A stretch of 64,000 nt of DNA, taken from an uncultured virus (IMG/VR IMGVR_UViG_3300036985_007154) (taxonomy: Duplodnaviria; Heunggongvirae; Uroviricota; Caudoviricetes). A program made the position numbers and the translations under genes. The stretch lies in IMG/VR virus record IMGVR_UViG_3300036985_007154. The stretch is one strand, 5' to 3'. This document shows, one piece after another, positions 1 to 16,532 of the stretch; the stretch's first letter is position 1, and each line of letters starts with the position of its first letter. The notes beneath the pieces are model-generated. The model was not told the origin of the DNA and made no database searches. It saw nothing but the letters and a program-made list of their open reading frames with translations.

Positions 1-2
1 GA

Positions 3-293
3 GCATTTCCAAATGACCCAAAAATTAGTGATGAAGGATGGTTACTTGGTAGGTTTGGTGGTAAATCAATTTCTGATAAGGCTAACAAAGTTAAAGAAAA
101 GAAATACGAAGGAAAGAAATTACCTTCAACATCAAACAAAAGATGTTCAATAGATGGTGTTGAATTTGAATCGGCTAAAGCGGCTGCGGACTTTCTTAAT
201 ATAAATGAATTTTCTATTAGATGGATATTACAGGGTAGAGGTCGGTCAGTGAAACATAAAGAAAAATACAAAAATTGGTATTATATAAATTAA
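3..293 (+). CDS. C-terminal fragment of a probable homing endonuclease (NUMOD1/HTH-like DNA-binding end); 5'-truncated by the window
   Basis: Frame 3 is open from the window start to TAA 291-293; ...CSIDGVEFESAKAAADFLNINEFSIRWIL... resembles NUMOD1-type C-termini. Confidence 0.55.
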   Translation, partial: AFPNDPKISDEGWLLGRFGGKSISDKANKVKEKKYEGKKLPSTSNKRCSIDGVEFESAKAAADFLNINEFSIRWILQGRGRSVKHKEKYKNWYYIN

Positions 294-306
294 AAAAATA
301 AAAACT

Positions 307-543
307 ATGGAAAATTACAAAGCGGATTACTACAATCCAGAAACATTTGAAAAATCAGAAATTGAAACTAAAATACCTGTTGATTTAGTTAAGAAAGTAC
401 ATCAAGACTTAGAGTGTCTAAGAGGTTATTTAGTGACACCTACCTTGATTAACCCAGACGATAAGGACTCTGTTGTGTTTGGTATTATGGATATGAACGA
501 CAAAACATTGAAATATAAGGTAACAATCTCACCTAACAATTAA
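307..543 (+). CDS. hypothetical protein (78 aa)
   Basis: ORF with A-rich upstream region. Confidence 0.7.
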   Translation: MENYKADYYNPETFEKSEIETKIPVDLVKKVHQDLECLRGYLVTPTLINPDDKDSVVFGIMDMNDKTLKYKVTISPNN

Positions 544-552
544 ATTGTAATA

Positions 553-681
553 ATGAAGATATACTCCATCGTAGAGTTGATGGAGAGGGCATATAAAGTT
601 TCTCATTTCAGCAGAACAGATGCAGACAAGATTATGGCGGAAGCCGAAGAAGTTGGCAAAAAAATTGATTTATTGAAGTAA
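553..681 (+). CDS. small hypothetical protein (42 aa)
   Basis: Manually read ORF MKIYSIVELMERAYK...KIDLLK filling the gap before tRNA-Arg. Confidence 0.5.
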   Translation: MKIYSIVELMERAYKVSHFSRTDADKIMAEAEEVGKKIDLLK

Positions 682-689
682 TTCAATTT

Positions 690-763
690 GTCTCCGTAGC
701 TCAGCTGGATAGAGTCACGCACTTCTAATGCGTAGGTCACACGTTCGAATCGTGTCGGGGATA
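690..763 (+). tRNA. tRNA-Arg(UCU)
   Basis: Cloverleaf: acceptor GTCTCCG/CGGGGAT, anticodon arm ACGCA-CTTCTAA-TGCGT, T-loop TTCGAAT. Confidence 0.93.
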
Positions 764-796
764 CAAAAAAATATTTTACAAAATAAAAATATTTCT

Positions 797-815
797 TACC
801 TTTGAAGTAATTATA
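797..815 (+). promoter_or_regulatory. Bacteroidetes-type -7 element (TACCTTTG) plus a late-motif variant (TAATTATA) upstream of the leader ORF
   Basis: Matches the TAnnTTTG consensus at 797-804. Confidence 0.5.
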
Positions 816-821
816 GAAACA

Positions 822-914
822 ATGAGAACTACAGGTCAACATATTAACAGTAATATTCAACAAGAGAATTGTTGGTATGAAAGTATTTGCCCATGTAGTT
901 CGGAAGTCATATAA
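822..914 (+). CDS. putative attenuator leader peptide (30 aa, MRTTGQHINSNIQQENCWYESICPCSSEVI)
   Basis: Short ORF followed by a terminator; its 3' end (AGTTCGG, 897-903) is complementary to the terminator 5' arm. Confidence 0.55.
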   Translation: MRTTGQHINSNIQQENCWYESICPCSSEVI

Positions 915-948
915 GAAAATTTTTTTTACAAGTAAAAACTAATTTTTC

Positions 949-985
949 AAACCCCGAACTCTTAAAAAAAGTTTGGGGTTTTTTT
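949..985 (+). terminator. intrinsic terminator, probably a regulated attenuator
   Basis: Stem AAACCCCGAACT/AGTTTGGGGTTT followed by a T-tract. Confidence 0.8.
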
Positions 986-1016
986 ATGACTTCTTTTGTT
1001 CTTTGAAATATTGTAG

Positions 1017-1024
1017 TATCTTTG
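1017..1024 (+). promoter_or_regulatory. Bacteroidetes-type -7 promoter element upstream of tRNA-Glu
   Basis: TATCTTTG with TTTG about 20 nt upstream. Confidence 0.55.
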
Positions 1025-1036
1025 TAAGACAAACAA

Positions 1037-1113
1037 GCTCCGGTCGTCTAATTGGTTAGGACATCCCCCTTTCACGGGGAAGCTTACGGGTTCGAGTCCC
1101 GTCCGGAGTACCA
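1037..1113 (+). tRNA. tRNA-Glu(UUC), CCA encoded
   Basis: Acceptor GCTCCGG/CCGGAGT, arm TCCCC-CTTTCAC-GGGGA, T-loop TTCGAGT, 3' ACCA. Confidence 0.95.
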
Positions 1114-1123
1114 GTCACTTTAT

Positions 1124-1240
1124 AGTCAGGTGGTGGAATTGGTAGACACGGAGTTTAGCGTTACTGACATAGATAGGTAACTGGTCACGCAGCGAGATAG
1201 CGTACTCTTTCTATTACAGGTTCGAATCCTGTCCTGACCA
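1124..1240 (+). ncRNA. tRNA-like RNA with the anticodon loop replaced by a ~50-nt two-hairpin insert
   Basis: Acceptor GTCAGG/CCTGAC, Leu-like D-arm GGTGGAATTGGTAGACAC, perfect T-arm ACAGG-TTCGAAT-CCTGT; no 7-nt anticodon loop. Confidence 0.75.
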
Positions 1241-1306
1241 CGCAAAAAACAAATAAGATGGAGTTTCTTTACCCCGTTAGGGATGAGTTTTAGAAATCTA
1301 AAAATT

Positions 1307-1374
1307 AGTCAGGTGGTGTAAATGGCAGCACGCGGTGATTAACTGAAGAGCGGGTTAGAAACCCGTCCTGACAC
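1307..1374 (+). ncRNA. tRNA-like RNA with a shrunken anticodon arm
   Basis: Acceptor GTCAGG/CCTGAC, D-arm GTGT..GCAC, short stem CGGT-GATTA-ACTG, T-arm GCGGG-TTAGAAA-CCCGT. Confidence 0.65.
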
Positions 1375-1383
1375 CTTAACAAT

Positions 1384-1457
1384 GGTCAGATACCCAAGTG
1401 GCTTAAGGGGCTTGTCTGCAAAACAAGTATCCATCGGTTCGAATCCGATTCTGACCT
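1384..1457 (+). tRNA. tRNA-Cys(GCA)
   Basis: Acceptor GGTCAGA/TCTGACC, arm CTTGT-CTGCAAA-ACAAG, U73 discriminator. Confidence 0.95.
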
Positions 1458-1483
1458 CATTAACAAATAAATAAAAAAAAATT

Positions 1484-1792
1484 ATGAAACCAAGATTATC
1501 TAAAGATCAGAAAAAACAAAAAATGGTTATCGATTTGATAAACAAGATGTTCGAAATTGCTGGTCATCCTGTGACCTATGACGATATCAAGGACCGTAAG
1601 GATAGTTGGTATACTGATTGGACTATGACCATGGAACAAAACGACGAATGGAAAAAATGGGGTAAAAAATACCTTATGAAAGAACTTCGTATGTATGCTA
1701 AAATGGCTGAAAAAGAAATGTCGATGATTTCTTTGATGTGGGGACTAAAATTTAGTAACTTTGAACTCAATACTGTAGAAGATGACATTTAG
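1484..1792 (+). CDS. hypothetical protein (102 aa)
   Basis: ORF inside the tRNA cluster. Confidence 0.75.
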   Translation: MKPRLSKDQKKQKMVIDLINKMFEIAGHPVTYDDIKDRKDSWYTDWTMTMEQNDEWKKWGKKYLMKELRMYAKMAEKEMSMISLMWGLKFSNFELNTVEDDI

Positions 1793-1828
1793 TGAATTAG
1801 AATTAGAAACTTTAACCTACGAAACGAA

Positions 1829-2245
1829 ATGAAAATAGTAATTGTAAGCGGATATTTTAATCCTGTTCATAAAGGACATATTGAATATTTCAATAAATCC
1901 AAAGAACATGGTGATAAACTCTATGTGATTGTCAACAACGACAAACAGAGAGAGTTGAAAGGTAGTAAAGAGTTCCAAGATGAAGATGAAAGAATGTTTA
2001 TCATCCAAAACCTGAAAATGGTTGATAGAGTATTTCTATCAGTTGACACAGATAGAACTGTGTGTAATACAATCAGTATGATTCATTCTTTGGGGGATAG
2101 AGAGGACGAATTCCTATTCGCCAATGGTGGAGACCAAAACAATAATAGCATCCCTGAGACACCCATATGTGATTGGTTGGGGATTAAGTTGATTGATGGA
2201 CTTGGAGATAAAATCCAATCTTCGTCTTGGTTATTGAAGAAATAA
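1829..2245 (+). CDS. cytidylyltransferase-like protein (TagD/RibL/RfaE-II type, HIGH superfamily)
   Basis: SGYFNPVHKGH HIGH motif, FANGGD, C-terminal KIQSSSWLL. Confidence 0.9.
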   Translation: MKIVIVSGYFNPVHKGHIEYFNKSKEHGDKLYVIVNNDKQRELKGSKEFQDEDERMFIIQNLKMVDRVFLSVDTDRTVCNTISMIHSLGDREDEFLFANGGDQNNNSIPETPICDWLGIKLIDGLGDKIQSSSWLLKK

Positions 2246-2316
2246 GCATCTATGGTGAAATGGCATCATCCCGGTCTCCAAAACCGTTGTTCCAAGTTCG
2301 AGTCTTGGTGGATGTG
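2246..2316 (+). tRNA. tRNA-Trp(CCA)
   Basis: Acceptor GCATCTA/TGGATGT, loop CTCCAAA, T-arm CCAAG-TTCGAGT-CTTGG. Confidence 0.92.
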
Positions 2317-2328
2317 CAAAAGATATAT

Positions 2329-2461
2329 AGGTTGATTGGGGAATGATGATGTGAAGTAGTTGGTAGTTGTATAATAATAACATCGTCGGAGTTTGAACTA
2401 CCATAGTAATGCCAATCGTAAAAGGAGATGTCCACTGAACCATCTTCTCCTTTCCTAACCT
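2329..2461 (+). ncRNA. candidate structured (pseudoknotted) ncRNA between tRNA-Trp and tRNA-Tyr
   Basis: Five complementary helices, including crossing stems GATGATGT/ACATCGTC and TGGTAGTT/AACTACCA. Confidence 0.5.
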
Positions 2462-2462
2462 T

Positions 2463-2544
2463 GGGATCGTCGCATAGCGGCAATTGCTGGAGACTGTAAA
2501 TCTCCTCTCTTCGGAGTTCATAGGTTCGAGTCCTATCGGTCCCA
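2463..2544 (+). tRNA. tRNA-Tyr(GUA)
   Basis: Acceptor GGGATCG/CGGTCCC, arm GGAGA-CTGTAAA-TCTCC, long variable arm with a TTCG loop. Confidence 0.95.
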
Positions 2545-2549
2545 CATTT

Positions 2550-2620
2550 TGTCTTATGGTGTAACGGTAACACAATTGATTTTGGTTCAGTTATTTCAGG
2601 TTCGAATCCTGATGAGACAT
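2550..2620 (+). tRNA. tRNA-Gln(UUG)
   Basis: Acceptor TGTCTTA/TGAGACA (U1-A72), loop TTTTGGT, T-arm TCAGG-TTCGAAT-CCTGA. Confidence 0.92.
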
Positions 2621-2673
2621 CAAGTTATTCATGTTCCAAAACATTAAAAAAAAGTAAGTTTTGGAACATCAAT

Positions 2674-2758
2674 AGAGAGTTGCCTGAGTGGTTAAAGGAG
2701 CAGATTGCTAATCTGTCATCTCGAAAGGGATGCATTGGTTCGAATCCAATACTCTCTG
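2674..2758 (+). tRNA. tRNA-Ser(GCU)
   Basis: Acceptor AGAGAGT/ACTCTCT, arm GCAGA-TTGCTAA-TCTGT, long variable arm, G73. Confidence 0.95.
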
Positions 2759-2834
2759 CAATAACATTCTATGACGAAGGAACTCGATTGGGAACTGGAA
2801 GTGAGGGCACAATGCACATAGAATGTTATTTTAT

Positions 2835-2985
2835 TGTAAGGTGATGAAATTGGCAGACGTGCCCTCCTGTCTCGGGGGTGGGGATAAAGAAATAGATAAG
2901 TAATATGAGGGGGTAGACCACCAGCCGGCCGGCGATATGTTATTTGTTGAATCTCCTCGTGGTGGTTCGAATCCATCTCTTACAG
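2835..2985 (+). tRNA. tRNA-Asp(GUC)-like RNA with an ~80-nt variable region
   Basis: Acceptor TGTAAGG/TCTTACA plus G73, class II-like D-arm, arm CCCTC-CTGTCTC-GGGGG, T-arm GGTGG-TTCGAAT-CCATC; 151 nt in total. Confidence 0.7.
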
Positions 2986-2990
2986 CACAA

Positions 2991-3064
2991 TGGAATATAG
3001 CTCAGTTGGTTAGAGCGCTATCCTGATACGGTAGATGTCGATGGTTCGAGTCCATCTATTCCAA
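2991..3064 (+). tRNA. tRNA-Ile(GAU)
   Basis: Acceptor TGGAATA/TATTCCA, arm CTATC-CTGATAC-GGTAG. Confidence 0.93.
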
Positions 3065-3065
3065 C

Positions 3066-3404
3066 ATGGAAATTGAAATAAAAAGGAAGGTTAGCAACAA
3101 AGCTAAATTCAACAAGATTGTAAAAGAATATAAGGACGCAAGTTCTTACGAGATTTGGGAGGGAGTTCGGGATAATTTTATCTTTGGATTCATTGCGGCA
3201 ACTTTAGTTGTTTTCATCGCAACTAAAACTGATTTGGCGGTTTTAATAGGTTATTTGACTTATTATTTCTTTATGGGTAAAATTGTAAATCGTCCCAAAT
3301 ATGTCACTGATTTGGGAAAATTAATTGTATTTCCGATACCATCTACACTTGGTGCATTTGCGGGATACAAACTATCTTATTACTTGATTCAAGTATTAAG
3401 TTAA
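3066..3404 (+). CDS. membrane protein (about 3 TM segments)
   Basis: Three hydrophobic stretches. Confidence 0.75.
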   Translation: MEIEIKRKVSNKAKFNKIVKEYKDASSYEIWEGVRDNFIFGFIAATLVVFIATKTDLAVLIGYLTYYFFMGKIVNRPKYVTDLGKLIVFPIPSTLGAFAGYKLSYYLIQVLS

Positions 3405-3491
3405 AAAAAAACTAAAAAATTTGACTACTCCGTAGAAATTTCATATATTTATAGTTCGTAAATTAAATAAAAAACAAAAAACAAAAAAAAA

Positions 3492-3689
3492 ATGAAAAAA
3501 ATTTTAGTAGTATTCACAATCCTTTCTACCATGATTCTCGCATCTTGTGGAGGTAAAGCAGTTGAATCAGTTGTAACTGATTCCACAGCAGTAGTTGTCG
3601 ACACAACTGTAGTTGAAGGAACAGAAGTTGTTGGTGGTGGAGCAGAAGTTGTAGAAGTTGAAGCCGCTCAAGGTGAGGCAATAAAGTAA
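3492..3689 (+). CDS. small lipoprotein
   Basis: Signal peptide with lipobox LASC; V/E/T-rich mature part; TATTTATA upstream. Confidence 0.8.
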   Translation: MKKILVVFTILSTMILASCGGKAVESVVTDSTAVVVDTTVVEGTEVVGGGAEVVEVEAAQGEAIK

Positions 3690-3702
3690 TCTCAACTTAA
3701 TC

Positions 3703-3736
3703 AAAAAAAAGAACCCACCTTATGGTGGGTTTTTTT
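3703..3736. terminator. bidirectional intrinsic terminator
   Basis: Stem AACCCACC/GGTGGGTT flanked by A- and T-tracts, between convergent genes. Confidence 0.8.
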
Positions 3737-4964
3737 ATAACATCTTTTTTATTCTTTCTATATTTTCATTTACTTTTTTTCGATTAAACGGGTCTTTCAA
3801 AAAGTTCAACACAAATGGGTCAACCTGTTTTTTGTCGGCAACACCACCGTATCGTTTTTCCGTTCTATTTCCTTCTTTATCGTATTTATCTTGAAAAATT
3901 TTTAATGGAGCCCCTATTAATGCTGCCATAAATGGATCCCAATATTCAGGGTCTGACGACTTTTTCTTTTTTTCTGTGTCTGTGTCTGTCTCTTTTTTTC
4001 CTGCTGGTAAACTTGTATCCGTTATAGGTATTTTAGACCATGTGTGGTCAAACATATTAACTTCAACATCAGTGTCTGTTCTACCCAATAAATCGCCTGG
4101 ACTCACCCTATCACCGTTTGATAATGAAGGACTTGATATTCCACAGTATTGTAAATACGTGGTCCCATTATCATTATTTTCAATTGTTAATTGATTAACA
4201 CAACCTGAGAAAAATTTAGAGTTATTGATTTTACCTGAGATTGGAGATTTGATTTTTGGATTATCATCTTTAGGAAGTATAATTCTACCATATCGGTTTG
4301 AACTGTTTTTCCCTAAGGACCTGCTTTCGTTGATACCTTCAATACTTTTTACTGAACCCGCAATACGTGCATATTGAGGTCTTGGAGATGACTTAATGTC
4401 TTCCTTTCCAGTTGCGTAATTATAAGCATCTTCTGATGAGTTAGTCGAATCTATTGTTTGGTCAACAGTGTAATTACCACCTGAGTATTTTTGAATTACC
4501 CACTTCATGAGTTCAGTGATAGTATCTTGGTTTCCACTGATATCTACACCAGCACCAACAGGAGGTTCACCTTCAAATGTTTTATAATGAAAACTATTGT
4601 TTGTATGAACATTGTCTACCTTTCCATTAGGGTCCTTTTTGGCATAAGGATTCTCAGTTGTTGTAAGTCCCATTTCGTGGGCCTTATCTATGACATCCAT
4701 TGCAACCTCACGGTTTGTAAATCCAATATGAAGATGGTTGTCGTGATTACCCCAAGTTATTCCATCCACCTTTCTACCTCCGTCAAATCCGAAACCTATA
4801 GGTCCCCCTTTTTTTGTTGCGGGATTGTAGACTAATTCGTCAATACCCGAAATATCGGCTTCACTGACAGATGATTTAGTACTATTGGAAGTAAATTCTT
4901 TAATAGAATTTTTCGTTGATTTTATCTCTTCAAATAGTCTTGTAATATTTTTTTCGATACTCAT
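3735..4964 (-). CDS. probable virion protein with a Zn-peptidase (M15-like) region and a degenerate M23-like domain
   Basis: HDNHLHIG and SFHY...AGVDI motifs; IKSPISGKI...GDRVSPGDLLG; start chosen at the ATG 4 nt after TATTTATT. Confidence 0.6.
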   Translation of the reverse strand: MSIEKNITRLFEEIKSTKNSIKEFTSNSTKSSVSEADISGIDELVYNPATKKGGPIGFGFDGGRKVDGITWGNHDNHLHIGFTNREVAMDVIDKAHEMGLTTTENPYAKKDPNGKVDNVHTNNSFHYKTFEGEPPVGAGVDISGNQDTITELMKWVIQKYSGGNYTVDQTIDSTNSSEDAYNYATGKEDIKSSPRPQYARIAGSVKSIEGINESRSLGKNSSNRYGRIILPKDDNPKIKSPISGKINNSKFFSGCVNQLTIENNDNGTTYLQYCGISSPSLSNGDRVSPGDLLGRTDTDVEVNMFDHTWSKIPITDTSLPAGKKETDTDTEKKKKSSDPEYWDPFMAALIGAPLKIFQDKYDKEGNRTEKRYGGVADKKQVDPFVLNFLKDPFNRKKVNENIERIKKML

Positions 4965-5001
4965 ATTCAATAAATATCAAAGACAAAAAAAAAGACTGAA
5001 T

Positions 5002-7598: not shown

Positions 7599-10085
7599 AT
7601 GATTAAAAATCTATTTTTTTTACTCTTATTTCCATTAACGGTGTTTTCACAACAAAAACAAATAACCATCAATGGAACAACAAAATCAAAAACAGAAGAC
7701 ATTTATTTTGCTCACGTAACTTTCCAAGATGTTAGTGGTAATAAATTCACAACAATTTCTGATGAAAACGCAAAGTATAATGTTTCTCTCAATGAAGGAA
7801 CTTACGAAGTTAAAGGAACTTACATTGGATACAAAGATTTCGTAACCACCATTACTGTAACCACCGTTACTATCTTGGATATTATTTTTGAGCCAACCGA
7901 TACGGAGTTAAACGAAGTTTTAGTTCGAGGAACTGCACAAAAAGTCACAGATATATCGGTTATGAAATCTATACGAAATAATATTGTCGTATCCGATGGA
8001 TTATCAATAGAATTCATAAAGAAGACCCCCGATAGAAATTTGGGTGACGCATTGAAACGAGTAAGTGGTGTCACAATCCAAAATGACAAATTTGTTTTGG
8101 TTCGAGGGCTTGCCGATAGATATAATTCGGCATTATTGAATCAAACACCTTTACCCTCCACAGAACCCGATAGACGAGCATTCTCATTTGATATTATCCC
8201 AACTTCTTTGATTGATAATATAATGGTTTCCAAATCATTTTCGGCAAACCAACCAGGTGATTGGAGTGGAGGATTGGTTCAAGTATCGACAAAGGAGGTG
8301 TCCGACAATTTTTTGGACGTAAGCTTGGGGACGGGAATCGGATCTGTCTCGACTTTCCAAGACTTTAAACTGGTGGAATCGATCCCATTTCCGTTAACCT
8401 TTCCTTCCACATACAAATTCCGAATGAGCGGTAATGGTGATAAAAGATTATTCACAAAACAAATAGGAAACCCAACGGAAAATAGATTTCAATCCATACC
8501 AAACTTAAATGGAGGACTTTCATTTGGTTATGTAAAAAACAAATTCAATTCATTATTCAGTTCAACAATTCGAAACACAAATACTCTCAACAATGTTGAG
8601 AGAAAGGATTATCAATCTTCCACAGAACTGGCATACGATTATAATGATAGATTATACACCCAAAGATTTTCCACAAATGGATTATTAAACTTAACTTATT
8701 TGGGTAAAAACAAATATAGTTGGAAAACATTGGCAAACTTCCAAAAGGAAAGTTCATACCTGACAAGAGAAGGTCAAAACTTTGACAATGTTCAAGATGT
8801 GTTGAGTAATGCGTCAAACCATATCAATAACGTGGTAATCAACTCACAGGTTGATGGTAATATTGAAACTTTTGATTTCAATTTCGGATATAACTACATC
8901 TTCAGAGAACAACCTGATTATAGAATTAACCCAATCACCAAATCATTAGGTGTAAATGAACCATTTGCAACCGCATGGAGAGACACCTACAGATTTTGGA
9001 GTGTTATGGATGAGAATTCATTTAACGGAAACTTGAAAAAAGATTTGGGTAAATTCGAAGTGGGTGGAGGTTATTTGAAAAAGATTCGAGGATTTAGTGC
9101 AAGAGTTTTCAGATATCAAACAACGGATTTATTGGATGAAATCACCAACAATACAGATAGATACACCGCTGACTTTGATTTGGGTAATCTTTATACGATG
9201 TATGAGAACGAAATCGGAAAATGGAAAATCAATACAGGCGTAAGAGGTGAATACAACTTGTTTGATGTTGAAACCGCAGATTTCAGTGGTCAAAAGGTAA
9301 ATGTTGATAGAACATATTTGGACATTCTTCCATCATTGAACCTTTCTTATAACTTGGAGAAGACAAAATATAGATTCTCTTTGAGTAAGACCTTGGCAAG
9401 ACCAGAGTTCAGAGAAGTTGCAAACTTTGCATATTATGACTTTGTTAGAAACGCACAAATATTAGGAAACTCCAACTTGAAAAAAACCGACATATACAAT
9501 GTTGATTTGAAATACGAGTTATATCCTTCAAACACAGAAAACATTTCTCTCTCATTTTTTGGTAAAAATTTCGTAAACCCAATTGAACAAATTGTTGCCG
9601 ATGGGTCAGTTCCATCCAATTTACTTTTAACTTATGCAAATCCTGAATCAGCACTTGTATATGGTGTTGAAATGGAAGTGAGAAAAAGAATAAATGGATG
9701 GTTCGATTTTTACACAAACGCTTCAGTTATGAAATCTGAAGTTGATATGAATGGTGTAAAAAGACAATTACAAGGTCAATCCAATTATATGATTAACTCA
9801 GGGATAAACTTTAATAAGAAAAATAATACTTTGAACTTAACCTACAACAGAATCGGTGAAAGAATATCTGCGGTCGGTTTCCAAGGTTATCCCGATATCT
9901 TTGAAAATAGTAGAGACGTGTTGGATATTACATTCTTACGTAAACTTCCAAAAGGAGAATTGAAACTGGCAATAGGAGATATCTTCGCACAGCCATCAAT
10001 AAACTATCAAAAAATTTCAAATCGTAACTTAATAAACACAAATAACGAAACAACAGTTTCATTAACCTTAAATCTAAATTTATGA
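7599..10085 (+). CDS. TonB-dependent outer-membrane receptor (CarboxypepD_reg-like N-domain, plug, beta-barrel)
   Basis: Signal peptide; plug motifs ALKRVSGVTI, VLVRGLADRYN, FSFDIIP; barrel motif TLARPEFRE; Bacteroidetes-style architecture. Confidence 0.92.
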   Translation: MIKNLFFLLLFPLTVFSQQKQITINGTTKSKTEDIYFAHVTFQDVSGNKFTTISDENAKYNVSLNEGTYEVKGTYIGYKDFVTTITVTTVTILDIIFEPTDTELNEVLVRGTAQKVTDISVMKSIRNNIVVSDGLSIEFIKKTPDRNLGDALKRVSGVTIQNDKFVLVRGLADRYNSALLNQTPLPSTEPDRRAFSFDIIPTSLIDNIMVSKSFSANQPGDWSGGLVQVSTKEVSDNFLDVSLGTGIGSVSTFQDFKLVESIPFPLTFPSTYKFRMSGNGDKRLFTKQIGNPTENRFQSIPNLNGGLSFGYVKNKFNSLFSSTIRNTNTLNNVERKDYQSSTELAYDYNDRLYTQRFSTNGLLNLTYLGKNKYSWKTLANFQKESSYLTREGQNFDNVQDVLSNASNHINNVVINSQVDGNIETFDFNFGYNYIFREQPDYRINPITKSLGVNEPFATAWRDTYRFWSVMDENSFNGNLKKDLGKFEVGGGYLKKIRGFSARVFRYQTTDLLDEITNNTDRYTADFDLGNLYTMYENEIGKWKINTGVRGEYNLFDVETADFSGQKVNVDRTYLDILPSLNLSYNLEKTKYRFSLSKTLARPEFREVANFAYYDFVRNAQILGNSNLKKTDIYNVDLKYELYPSNTENISLSFFGKNFVNPIEQIVADGSVPSNLLLTYANPESALVYGVEMEVRKRINGWFDFYTNASVMKSEVDMNGVKRQLQGQSNYMINSGINFNKKNNTLNLTYNRIGERISAVGFQGYPDIFENSRDVLDITFLRKLPKGELKLAIGDIFAQPSINYQKISNRNLINTNNETTVSLTLNLNL

Positions 10086-14341: not shown

Positions 14342-16354
14342 TTACCTACCTTTCTTGACTACTTTGACTACTTCATCTTCGACTTTAATCACGTAGGTTT
14401 TTCCTACTATAATTTTGTCGGTCAGAACTTCTTCAGATAATAAGTCTTCAACTTTATCCTGAATCGCTCTCTTGAGTGGTCTTGCACCGTATACCTCATC
14501 ATATCCGATTTTTGAGAGGTAATTCAAAAGTGATTCATCATAAGTAATCTTATACTTCATTTCGTCAAGACGCTTCATCAACTTCTTAAGTTCGATGTCA
14601 GTGATTTTCTTAATATCCTCTTGAGATAGAGAATTAAAAACGATGGTGTCATCAATACGATTGATAAACTCTGGTGAGAAGAAATTTTTCATTTCCTTCA
14701 TCAAGATATCCTTCTTCGCTTCTTCATTACTGTAGGTATTGTTAGAAAATCCAATACCAGTACCGAAGTCTTGTAGTTTTTTAACTCCAAGATTTGATGT
14801 CAAGATAATCAAGGTATTTTTGAAGTTAATCTTTCTACCCAAACTATCTGTAACGTGACCATCGTCCAAGATTTGAAGTAATACTGCGAATACGTCCTTA
14901 TGAGCTTTTTCAACCTCATCAAACAAGATAACAGAGTAAGGTTTGTTCTTAACTTTCTCGGTCAACAATCCACCTTCTTCGTATCCAACATAACCTGGAG
15001 GTGCTCCAACCAATTTGGATACGGTGTGTTTCTCTTGGTACTCGGACATATCCACACGGATTAGTGCGTCCTCACTTCCAAACATTTCTTTTGCAAGTTG
15101 TTTTGCGAGGTGAGTTTTACCGACACCTGTTGAACCCAAGAAAACGAATGAACCAATTGGACGATTTGGGTCTTTGATACCAAGTCGGTTTCTCTTGATA
15201 GATTTTGCAACCTTGATAACCGCGGCATCCTGACCAATAACAGTTCCAACAATGTGTTTATCCAAGTTCAACAATGCTTTGGTGTCATCCACAGACATTT
15301 TATTGACAGGGATTTTGGTCATGTTGGAAACAACATCATAAACATCTTCCAAACTAATCTTCTGTTTGTCTTTGGACATTTGTTCTTCAAACTTTTGTTT
15401 TTCTTGTTCCAATTTGTCCAACAACTTTTTCTCCTTGTCTCGGAGTTGTGCCGCTTGTTCGTAATTCTGTTTTTTCACAACGTCCAACTTCTGTTGTTTC
15501 AGTTCAGCAGCTTTACGCTTCAACTCTTCGATTGCTTCAGGAACCTTAAGTTCGGTCTGCATTCTAGCTCCAACTTCATCCAAGATGTCGAATGCTTTGT
15601 CAGGGAATTCACGGTCGGTGATATATCTATCCGCCAACTTAACACAAGCTTCAATGACTTCATCGGAATAAGTCACTTTGTGATATGTTTCGTATTTGTC
15701 CCGAACATTTTTCAAAATTTCAATTGTTTCAATCACAGTAGATGGTTCAACAATTACTTTTTGAAATCTACGCTCTAACGCTCCATCCTTTTCGATGTTT
15801 TTTCTGAACTCATCCAAAGTGGTCGCTCCGATTACTTGTAGTTCACCACGTGCCAATGCTGGTTTGAAAATGTTGGAACCATCCATCGAACCTGAGGAAT
15901 TTCCTGAACCAACCAACGTATGAATCTCATCAATGAATACGATGATATTAGGATTAACTTGAAGTTCTTCGATGATAACCTTCATTCTTTCTTCAAATTG
16001 TCCACGGTACTTTGTACCAGCAACAACTGAAGTTAGGTCAAGATTAACCAATCTTTTATCCAAGAGATTACGAGGACAATCACCATTAACAATTTTCATC
16101 GCCAAACCTTCAACAATTGCAGTTTTACCACAACCAGGTTCACCAAGAATAATTGGGTTATTTTTCTTTCTTCGGGAAAGAATTTGAGCGATTCGTAGAA
16201 TCTCTCGATCTCTTCCGATGACAGGGTCCAATTTACCCGCCTCTGCAAGTTTATTCAAATCTCTACTGAAATTGTCTAGCACAGGCGTCGAGGTATCTCC
16301 TGACTTCTGTCTTTTACTCATCATTTTGTCTTCGTCGTCCATTAAGTCGTTCAT
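14342..16354 (-). CDS. clpC: ClpC-type AAA+ ATPase lacking the N-terminal Clp repeat domain
   Basis: Two NBDs ([29 protein letters not shown]), UVR-type M-domain (YEQAAQLRD), IGF loop, GARPL. Confidence 0.92.
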
Positions 16355-16532
16355 ACGTTTTTTAGTTTTTACAAAGTAATAACAATTTTTATTCTTATCC
16401 AAATGATTTGACAAATTGTCAGAAAATATTTATTTTTATTAAATCTTTTACTGACATAATGTCATAGAATCACTATCGGCATAAATCTTGGAACAAAGAT
16501 AACAAATAAACTTAAAATAAAAAACTAAAATT

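Follow-up and report, generated by a model that had tools for sequence, protein, structure and literature searches.

A probable leader-peptide attenuator with codons matched to the downstream tRNA genes, located inside the tRNA cluster of an uncultured T4-like phage

Leader-peptide attenuators of amino-acid operons comprise the single-amino-acid prototypes trp and his as well as multivalent representatives, such as the thr, ilvGMEDA, and ilvBN leaders of Escherichia coli. Attenuation of the pheST type and T-box riboswitches control genes of aminoacyl-transfer RNA (tRNA) synthetases by tRNA charging; T-boxes bind one uncharged tRNA directly and do not need the ribosome, and pheST senses one amino acid. 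To our knowledge, neither of these two systems controls tRNA genes. The element described here lies inside the tRNA cluster of an uncultured virus (Caudoviricetes; IMG/VR record IMGVR_UViG_3300036985_007154), in a stretch of 64,000 nucleotides (nt) that was analysed as a whole and is referred to below as the window. Judged from sequence comparisons, positions 774-985 of its plus strand probably constitute a ribosome-mediated (leader-peptide) transcription attenuator that would provide codon-resolved feedback on the tRNA genes of the phage.

The locus resembles the attenuators of amino-acid operons in its short leader open reading frame (ORF), in the 1:2, 2:3, and 3:4 pairing of its RNA segments, in its intrinsic terminator, and in having more than one kind of regulatory codon, these codons being cognate to what the downstream genes supply. 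It differs from them in several respects: the regulated genes are phage tRNA genes and not biosynthetic enzymes, there are no single-codon runs but up to 13 tRNA species represented by about 1-3 codons each, the element is phage-borne and occurs twice per cluster in some relatives, and a putative promoter is placed between the terminator and the first regulated gene. The original prediction, made from the letters of the window, had described classical attenuators as using runs of codons for a single amino acid, which is too narrow a definition in view of the multivalent thr and ilv leaders. With pheST and the T-boxes, the proposed device would share the feedback of the state of the tRNA pool on decoding-machinery genes through the choice between terminator and antiterminator. 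As in T4-like and other large phages, the tRNA cluster of this T4-like myovirus is interspersed with small genes. Leader-peptide attenuation is treated in the abstracts of PMC1183508, PMC3082878, and PMC11857589. By title or abstract, no attenuator before phage tRNA genes was found among the papers listed, with subscription journals outside the coverage. What would be new is the application of leader-peptide attenuation to tRNA genes, while the layout is that of the known classical attenuators.

Between tRNA-Arg(tct) (690-764, ARAGORN) and tRNA-Glu(ttc) (1037-1113, ARAGORN and Rfam), with which the downstream tRNA set begins, the plus strand carries in this order a promoter-like site (P1), a 30-codon ORF, an A/U-rich spacer, an intrinsic terminator, and another promoter-like site (P2). 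P1 (774-804) is of the Bacteroidota type and consists of TTTT (774-777), 19 nt, and TACCTTTG (797-804); its upstream box reads TTTG in most relatives, and the pattern of the alignment is TTTG-N19-TAnnTTTG. As a promoter, which this pattern suggests it to be, P1 would start the leader transcript about 10 nt 5' of the ATG. The ORF (822-914, ATG start, 30 codons and a stop) encodes the peptide MRTTGQHINSNIQQENCWYESICPCSSEVI, which has no Pfam family match. Near its 5' end lies segment 1 (GAACTACA, 826-833), the anti-antiterminator, which pairs with segment 2 (TGTAGTTCGG, 894-903); the resulting outer helix of the ORF hairpin (826-833 with 894-901) is present in the minimum-free-energy (MFE) fold. 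The apex of this 1:2 hairpin is formed by the core codons CAA CAA GAG AAT TGT TGG (Q Q E N C W, 858-875), in which CAACA (858-862) pairs with TGTTG (870-874). The ORF is followed by the A/U-rich spacer (915-948), which contains a small hairpin and has a clade-variable sequence, and by the terminator (949-985). The latter is composed of segment 3 (949-960), a 9-nt loop (961-969), segment 4 (970-981), and a run of seven T (979-985); its stem comprises 12 base pairs (bp), and tRNA-Glu begins 52 nt later. A simple terminator scan with a loop limit of 8 misses this structure, which was found in the MFE fold.

The small ORF and the strong terminator lie where they had originally been placed, and the pairing claimed as the antiterminator is exact: AGTTCGG (897-903) is the reverse complement of CCGAACT (954-960), so that segment 2 has the 5' arm of the terminator as an alternative partner over 7 bp. 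A second pairing, between GAAGTCATA (903-911) and its reverse complement TATGACTTC (985-993), had been put forward as equally incompatible with the terminator. The 9-bp complementarity is exact, but in the MFE fold this helix occurs together with the terminator, on either side of which its strands lie. Its 3' strand (985-993) lies beyond the end of the terminator, which the helix encloses, and it can form only in read-through RNA. The helix is restricted to the clade of the window (9 of 27 sequences), where it has the compensating variants ATGTCATA:TATGACAT and ATGTCAA:TTGACAT; it may mark a site of processing or, by its folding, keep the leader apart from the tRNA precursor. In other clades, a shorter complementarity connects the spacer (CCTGAAG) with bases after the T run. 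The region 806-1000 folds with a z score of -5.3, none of 200 shuffles being equally stable, and the 9-bp complementarity was reached in 31 of 5000 shuffles, more rarely than the 7-bp one. The 20 Rfam matches in positions 1-5000 (E up to 1) were tRNAs and weak terminator-like ones; neither a T-box nor an amino-acid leader family (His, Trp, Thr, Leu, etc.) was among them, and the single match on the element was a weak, terminator-like one to NsiR1 over the terminator (21.8 bits, E 0.56).

This anatomy suggests the following course of events. Transcription would start at P1 or read in from tRNA-Arg, and a ribosome would begin on the 30-codon ORF. When decoding is fast, the ribosome at the stop codon would cover or pass segment 2 (894-903), the terminator (949-981 and the T run) would form, and transcription would end at about 985. 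When there is no translation, segment 1 would pair with segment 2 and the terminator would form as well. A ribosome stalled within approximately codons 5-20 would, as far as the geometry of the leader indicates, leave segment 2 free to pair with 954-960 once these bases have been transcribed. With the 2:3 pairing established, RNA polymerase would continue into the genes of tRNA-Glu, Cys, Trp, Tyr, Gln, Ser, and Ile. Because the downstream tRNAs decode the leader codons, scarcity of any one of these tRNAs would raise transcription of the whole sub-cluster, which would amount to negative feedback on the tRNA supply of the phage. We infer from the arrangement that the ORF would be translated, that transcription and translation would be coupled, and in which direction and to what extent the element would respond; the shortage sensed may be one of demand, of charging, or of tRNAs lost to host cleavage. 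The central idea of the original prediction, i.e., an attenuator with codons for many tRNAs, is supported by the conservation, covariation, and within-genome control presented below.

The evidence from the window is weak if taken alone, so the case rests on its relatives. These were gathered from IMG/VR via two neighbouring proteins, the core motif, and the terminator motif, and only copies confirmed by nhmmer were used. Three of the 20 distinct terminator-motif matches (L278, L284, and L288) were dropped as unrelated coding DNA; L281 is missing its 5' end, and L237/L290, which stops at the end of a contig, stands outside the 26 copies considered. At least 26 distinct complete copies, plus L377, were obtained from uncultured T4-like Bacteroidota-type phages with contigs of up to 333 kb, the copies being about 75-97% identical. 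All 20 groups of relatives have the element within their tRNA cluster, with Leu(taa), Arg(tct), or Leu(tag) upstream. The downstream series opens with tRNA-Glu in 18 of the 20 groups, L025 having Cys and L218 Phe in this place, and Cys, Trp, and Gln are found further on at every locus that extends far enough.

The ORF has remained open, with 24-36 codons, in all complete homologs (21 of 21 in one set and 8 of 8 in another), and in every complete copy the ATG is located exactly 36 nt 5' of the near-invariant core CAA CAA GAR AnT TGT TGG. Core codons 13-15 and 17-18 show synonymous changes that keep the same tRNA (CAA>CAG, GAG/GAA), besides the replacements E>V (L303), E>S (L377), and W>C (L193, L002); position 16 is variable (N, I, T, K). 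Most changes in the core and directly behind it are synonymous, one tRNA being able to read both codons (CAA>CAG, GAG/GAA, ATT>ATC, TAT>TAC). Further 3', small insertions and deletions shift the frame, and the C-terminal peptide is unconserved. The conserved GTAGTTCGG segment begins 67-73 nt past the ATG, with all three frames used; segment 2 (AGTTCGG) is therefore conserved as RNA. In 18 of 21 copies, the distance from the start of segment 2 to the stop codon is 1-20 nt.

Base pairing was counted in an alignment of 26 sequences, with the helix partner slid along the sequence as a control. The antiterminator (segment 2 with the 5' arm of the terminator and a part of its loop) is 82.3% paired vs 26-42% in the slid control. 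Four of its pairs are altered on both sides (16 cells), and none of 500 shuffles reached its covariation score. In one clade the antiterminator runs into the loop, pairing TGCGTAGTTCGG with TCGGACTACGCA, bases that the terminator does not need. The terminator itself is 96.4% paired. The outer helix of segments 1 and 2 is 84% paired and the apical hairpin 100%, which gives 90.2% for both combined vs 23-45% in the slid control; segment 1 is shifted in some clades. Both the ORF and the antiterminator pairing, on the conservation of which the original prediction had made its reading depend, are thus conserved, the latter with compensatory changes. Folds of the homologs are described here for those listed, a part of the 26. 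In all of them, the full free RNA adopts the 1:2 hairpin and the terminator. When the RNA is masked by a ribosome up to the core and cut before segment 4, the 2:3 helix forms, at -9.3 kcal/mol (window) to -20, and a ribosome modelled at the stop codon gives the terminator. In most copies, the antiterminator loses to the terminator at equilibrium, as is likewise the case in the E. coli trp leader.

The second line of evidence is the codon content of the leader, matched by strict wobble rules to the tRNAs downstream of each locus. As had been counted originally, the eight tRNAs found by ARAGORN decode 18 of the 30 leader codons in the window (18 of 29 if the start is disregarded), and each of the eight has a codon there. 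In 44 long ORFs, the same codons account for a background share of 0.269, which gives a probability of at least 18 of 29 of 5.5e-5 by simulation and 7.5e-5 by the binomial, and of 0.0024 for the presence of all eight kinds. Among the 163 ATG ORFs of 24-40 codons in the window, the leader ranks first (0.62 vs a mean of 0.26, standard deviation 0.10; the next-best has 17 of 29) and is the sole one with all eight kinds. It contains cognate codons for 7 of the 7 downstream tRNA species (P 0.005). Within codons 5-22, 13 of 18 are read by downstream tRNAs vs a background of 24% (binomial 2.4e-5); the mean of composition-matched shuffles is 4.8, the other two frames give 1 and 5 (0-7 over the copies), and only 9 of 15157 18-codon windows in the long ORFs of the phage reach 13 of 18. 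The overlap that had been noticed is accordingly above that of random phage ORFs, composition-matched shuffles, and the other two frames. Relatives with full context have 10-16 of 18, and values are lower at truncated loci; these codon figures represent one conserved property and not 26 independent tests.

The strongest control comes from a paralog of the element. A leader hidden Markov model (HMM) detected a weaker copy about 3 kb upstream of the window-type leader in one contig. This paralog, which precedes tRNA-Pro, is named leader 1, and the window-type leader, usually located before tRNA-Glu, leader 2. At least five distinct relatives carry leader 1 directly 5' of tRNA-Pro, the first tRNA of the cluster (e.g., L291:398-548, L204:602-876, L301:156-426, and L377:4423-4691), and where the full context is available (four contigs), the 4.5 kb 5' of it are free of tRNAs. 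Leader 1 cross-matches leader 2 weakly (E ~6e-4). With a separate promoter-like site and an ORF of 30-33 codons, leader 1 repeats the 1:2, 2:3, 3:4 layout and shows a compensatory pair of its own (AGATTCAG:CTGAATCT vs AGGTTCAG:CTGAACCT). By blastn, leader 1 was not detected in five records of the window's clade, nor was it seen 5' of the tRNA cluster of G002, a complete relative of 326 kb; the window starts just 821 nt before its leader ORF.

Each of the two leaders matches the tRNA genes that follow it. The codons of leader 1 (e.g., the peptides RPTTPNGDAGTL and MRHLNLNTGNRPTTPNGDAGTLCLDSDTDVG) fit the tRNAs located between both leaders: Pro, Asn, Asp, Gly, Gly, Thr, Ala, Leu, Arg, and Leu. 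Leader 2, as exemplified by MNTTMRHIVFSKQQEICWYEIMPCSSDV, fits those after leader 2: Glu, Val, Phe, Lys, Cys, Ile, Trp, Tyr, Met, Gln, Arg(acg), His, and Ser(gct). Pooled over four contigs (c1-c4), the codons of leader 1 are distributed as 77 for its own set, 12 for the other set, and 32 for neither, and those of leader 2 as 61, 11, and 32, respectively; the reciprocal match has a pooled Fisher p of 8.5e-21. It is also found within single genomes (p 2e-4, 1.5e-4, 3.6e-7, and 5.3e-7), where kinship of the contigs is not an issue, and a looser wobble rule gives the same reciprocal picture. In two contigs, a leader 2 of 27 codons covers 13 of 13 tRNA species located downstream, vs a mean of 6.8 in simulations (P 1e-5); coverage is 9 of 9 in a third contig and 9 of 11 in a fourth. 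For leader 1, the corresponding values are 8/8, 8/8, 7/7, and 7/9. Individual codon replacements have been followed as well: L303 with E>V has tRNA-Val in place of tRNA-Glu, and L193 with W>C has no tRNA-Trp, both of which fit tRNA turnover, while L377 with E>S(TCG) is a partial fit, having Ser(tga) downstream but retaining tRNA-Glu.

Several observations weigh against the attenuator reading. The original prediction had proposed to look for covariation of leader codons with the downstream tRNA set. Gain and loss of individual tRNAs is followed in two cases and not in four: L002 has W>C despite the presence of tRNA-Trp, L015 keeps W without tRNA-Trp, and L298 and L286 keep E without tRNA-Glu. 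Leader codon changes thus track tRNA gain and loss only sometimes. The leader of the window also has His and Asn codons, and no His or Asn tRNA is called in the window by ARAGORN. The range of codons 5-22 was picked after viewing the data, and because of the relatedness of the homologs, pooled P values suggest more independence than there is. In 3 of the 21 copies, the ORF extends further, with 26-35 nt between the start of segment 2 and the stop codon. A complementarity of 7 bp was reached in 379 of 5000 shuffles (7.6%), and with only 7 bp the antiterminator of the window is far weaker than the terminator, which wins at equilibrium. P2 is a further point. The original prediction had mentioned a promoter-like site at 1017 as a caveat, which holds and is stronger than had been noted: TATCTTTG (1017-1024) is the downstream box of P2 (995-1024), whose sequence TTTG-N18-TATCTTTG is a full match to TTTG-N18-TAnnTTTG. 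P2 is conserved in most relatives, the TAnnTTTG box being kept in 10 of 12 distinct aligned sequences. The box is also present after the terminator of leader 1 in 4 of 5 distinct sequences. Attenuators of this class usually have no independent promoter before the regulated genes, and the P2 match departs from this rule. As P2 lies between the terminator and tRNA-Glu, read-through can only add to P2-driven transcription. In the relative L194 (2080-2180), an ordinary protein gene ends in a very similar terminator, followed by TATCTTTG and tRNA-Leu(taa), so the module of terminator, promoter, and tRNA is reused within the cluster.

Attenuation could, with P2 in place, modulate only transcription from P1 or from further upstream, and P2 would lower the expected size of the effect and leave the mechanism as it is. 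In the window, the pattern TTTG-N18-21-TAnnTTTG has 11 matches vs 3.4 expected. The terminator before tRNA-Leu in L194 was considered as a further leader and rejected, being the end of an ordinary gene.

The same anatomy would be workable with any codons, and the element might be a real attenuator that senses only ribosome activity (e.g., host shut-off or ribosome availability), the codon match being a by-product. The inconsistent relation of leader codon changes to tRNA gain and loss would agree with such a general translation-status switch; however, it leaves unexplained the nearly disjoint, locally matched codon sets of two leaders in one genome (p 2e-4 to 4e-7) and the coverage of 13 of 13 tRNA species by 27 codons (P 1e-5), and it is considered unlikely. 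Even less likely is an independent tiny gene, in which P1, a 30-residue micro-protein, and an ordinary terminator would precede a separate tRNA promoter and the complementarity would be incidental. In its favour are the agreement of both P1 and P2 with the promoter consensus of the host, the presence of the terminator-promoter-tRNA module behind an ordinary gene of a relative, the conservation of the core QQE.CW at the residue level, and the lack of significance of the 7-bp pairing in the window alone. Yet segment 2 is kept in all three frames and the C-terminal peptide is not, compensatory changes link the end of the ORF with the arm and the loop of the terminator, the paralog shares the RNA layout with an unrelated peptide, and the protein has no family match.

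The stability of the fold (z -5.3, 0 of 200 shuffles), the clade-specific helix that encloses the terminator in read-through RNA, and the near-invariance of the core at the nucleotide level would also agree with a structured non-coding RNA or an element of tRNA-precursor processing, i.e., a stable small RNA of about 170 nt in which the ORF is incidental or secondary. The tRNA region of T4, which contains small stable RNAs, offers a comparison. Such an RNA would not account for the fixed distance of the ATG and the open frame in all complete copies, for a codon content unlike that of the other two frames and of shuffles, for synonymous changes in and just after the core that stay within the decoding range of one tRNA, or for the reciprocal match of codons and tRNAs; Rfam has no family for it beyond the terminator-like NsiR1 match. 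It appears very improbable. A leader-peptide attenuator with codons for many tRNAs is the preferred explanation of the locus.

The tRNA cluster occupies the first 3.1 kb of the window on the plus strand, with eight tRNAs called by ARAGORN. In addition to tRNA-Arg and tRNA-Glu, these are tRNA-Cys (1384-1458), tRNA-Trp (2246-2317), tRNA-Tyr (2463-2545), tRNA-Gln (2550-2621), tRNA-Ser(gct) (2674-2759), and tRNA-Ile(gat) (2991-3065). Three tRNA-like stretches are uncalled by this program. The stretch 1124-1240 has an Rfam tRNA score of 34 bits and is 117 nt in length, with a long insert. The degenerate stretch 1308-1375 has an acceptor stem and a T arm and seemingly misses a full anticodon arm; it lies directly 5' of tRNA-Cys, and relatives carry tRNA-His or tRNA-Asn at the same place. 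The stretch 2830-2990 has a T-arm-like end (GGTTCGAATCC) directly 5' of tRNA-Ile, where relatives have Leu(tag) and Gly(tcc). The cluster also contains a gene (1829-2245) for a cytidylyltransferase-like protein of 138 residues (PF01467, E 1.7e-12), which is found with 60-96% identity in 250 viral stretches. Elsewhere, the window encodes portal and major capsid proteins of the T4 type (gp20 and gp23 families), which identify the phage as a T4-like myovirus, a protein of 828 residues with TonB-dependent-receptor plug and outer-membrane beta-barrel domains (7599-10085), and a ClpB-like double AAA protein of 690 residues (14342-16414).

The closest cultured phage is Flavobacterium phage vB_FspM_immuto, with 42% identity of the major capsid protein. 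Unlike the phage of the window, immuto has four tRNAs and no comparable leader, either by the leader HMM or by reading of its tRNA region. A blastn search of the cultured phages in INPHARED with positions 600-3100 returned tRNA-sized matches only, and no record extended across the leader. A pattern scan of 185,579 bacterial species genomes yielded 5 matches, all attributed to chance and without a tRNA in the vicinity, and is uninformative on divergent copies. Scans with the core motif and with the leader-1 motif returned mostly unrelated DNA among the matches listed. Six public metatranscriptomes contained 8-14% of the sampled words, and four were placed as contigs, mostly on tRNAs, from which no starts, ends, or levels are readable.

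Why phages carry tRNA genes, and how the expression of these genes is controlled, are open questions. The proposals for their carriage include compensation for codon usage and escape from host defences that cleave tRNAs. With regard to the latter, each leader might tentatively be regarded as a codon-resolved alarm line that lists every tRNA of its sub-cluster, in which case the loss of one species, e.g., by a host anticodon nuclease that cleaves it in the course of infection, would stall the ribosome and lead to replacement synthesis, and the element would act as a counter-defence sensor in addition to regulating supply and demand. This role is doubtful, and host anticodon nucleases as the trigger are pure conjecture. 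If the attenuator reading is true, the element would be the first cis-acting device known to us that lets a tRNA operon measure its own decoding capacity, and it would extend classical attenuation from 1-3 amino acids to more than 10 inputs. The combination of a small ORF, a terminator, and tRNA genes, with ORF codons matching the anticodons, provides a search rule for more such elements. A single reporter could then show, codon by codon, which tRNA shortages the phage meets in its host.

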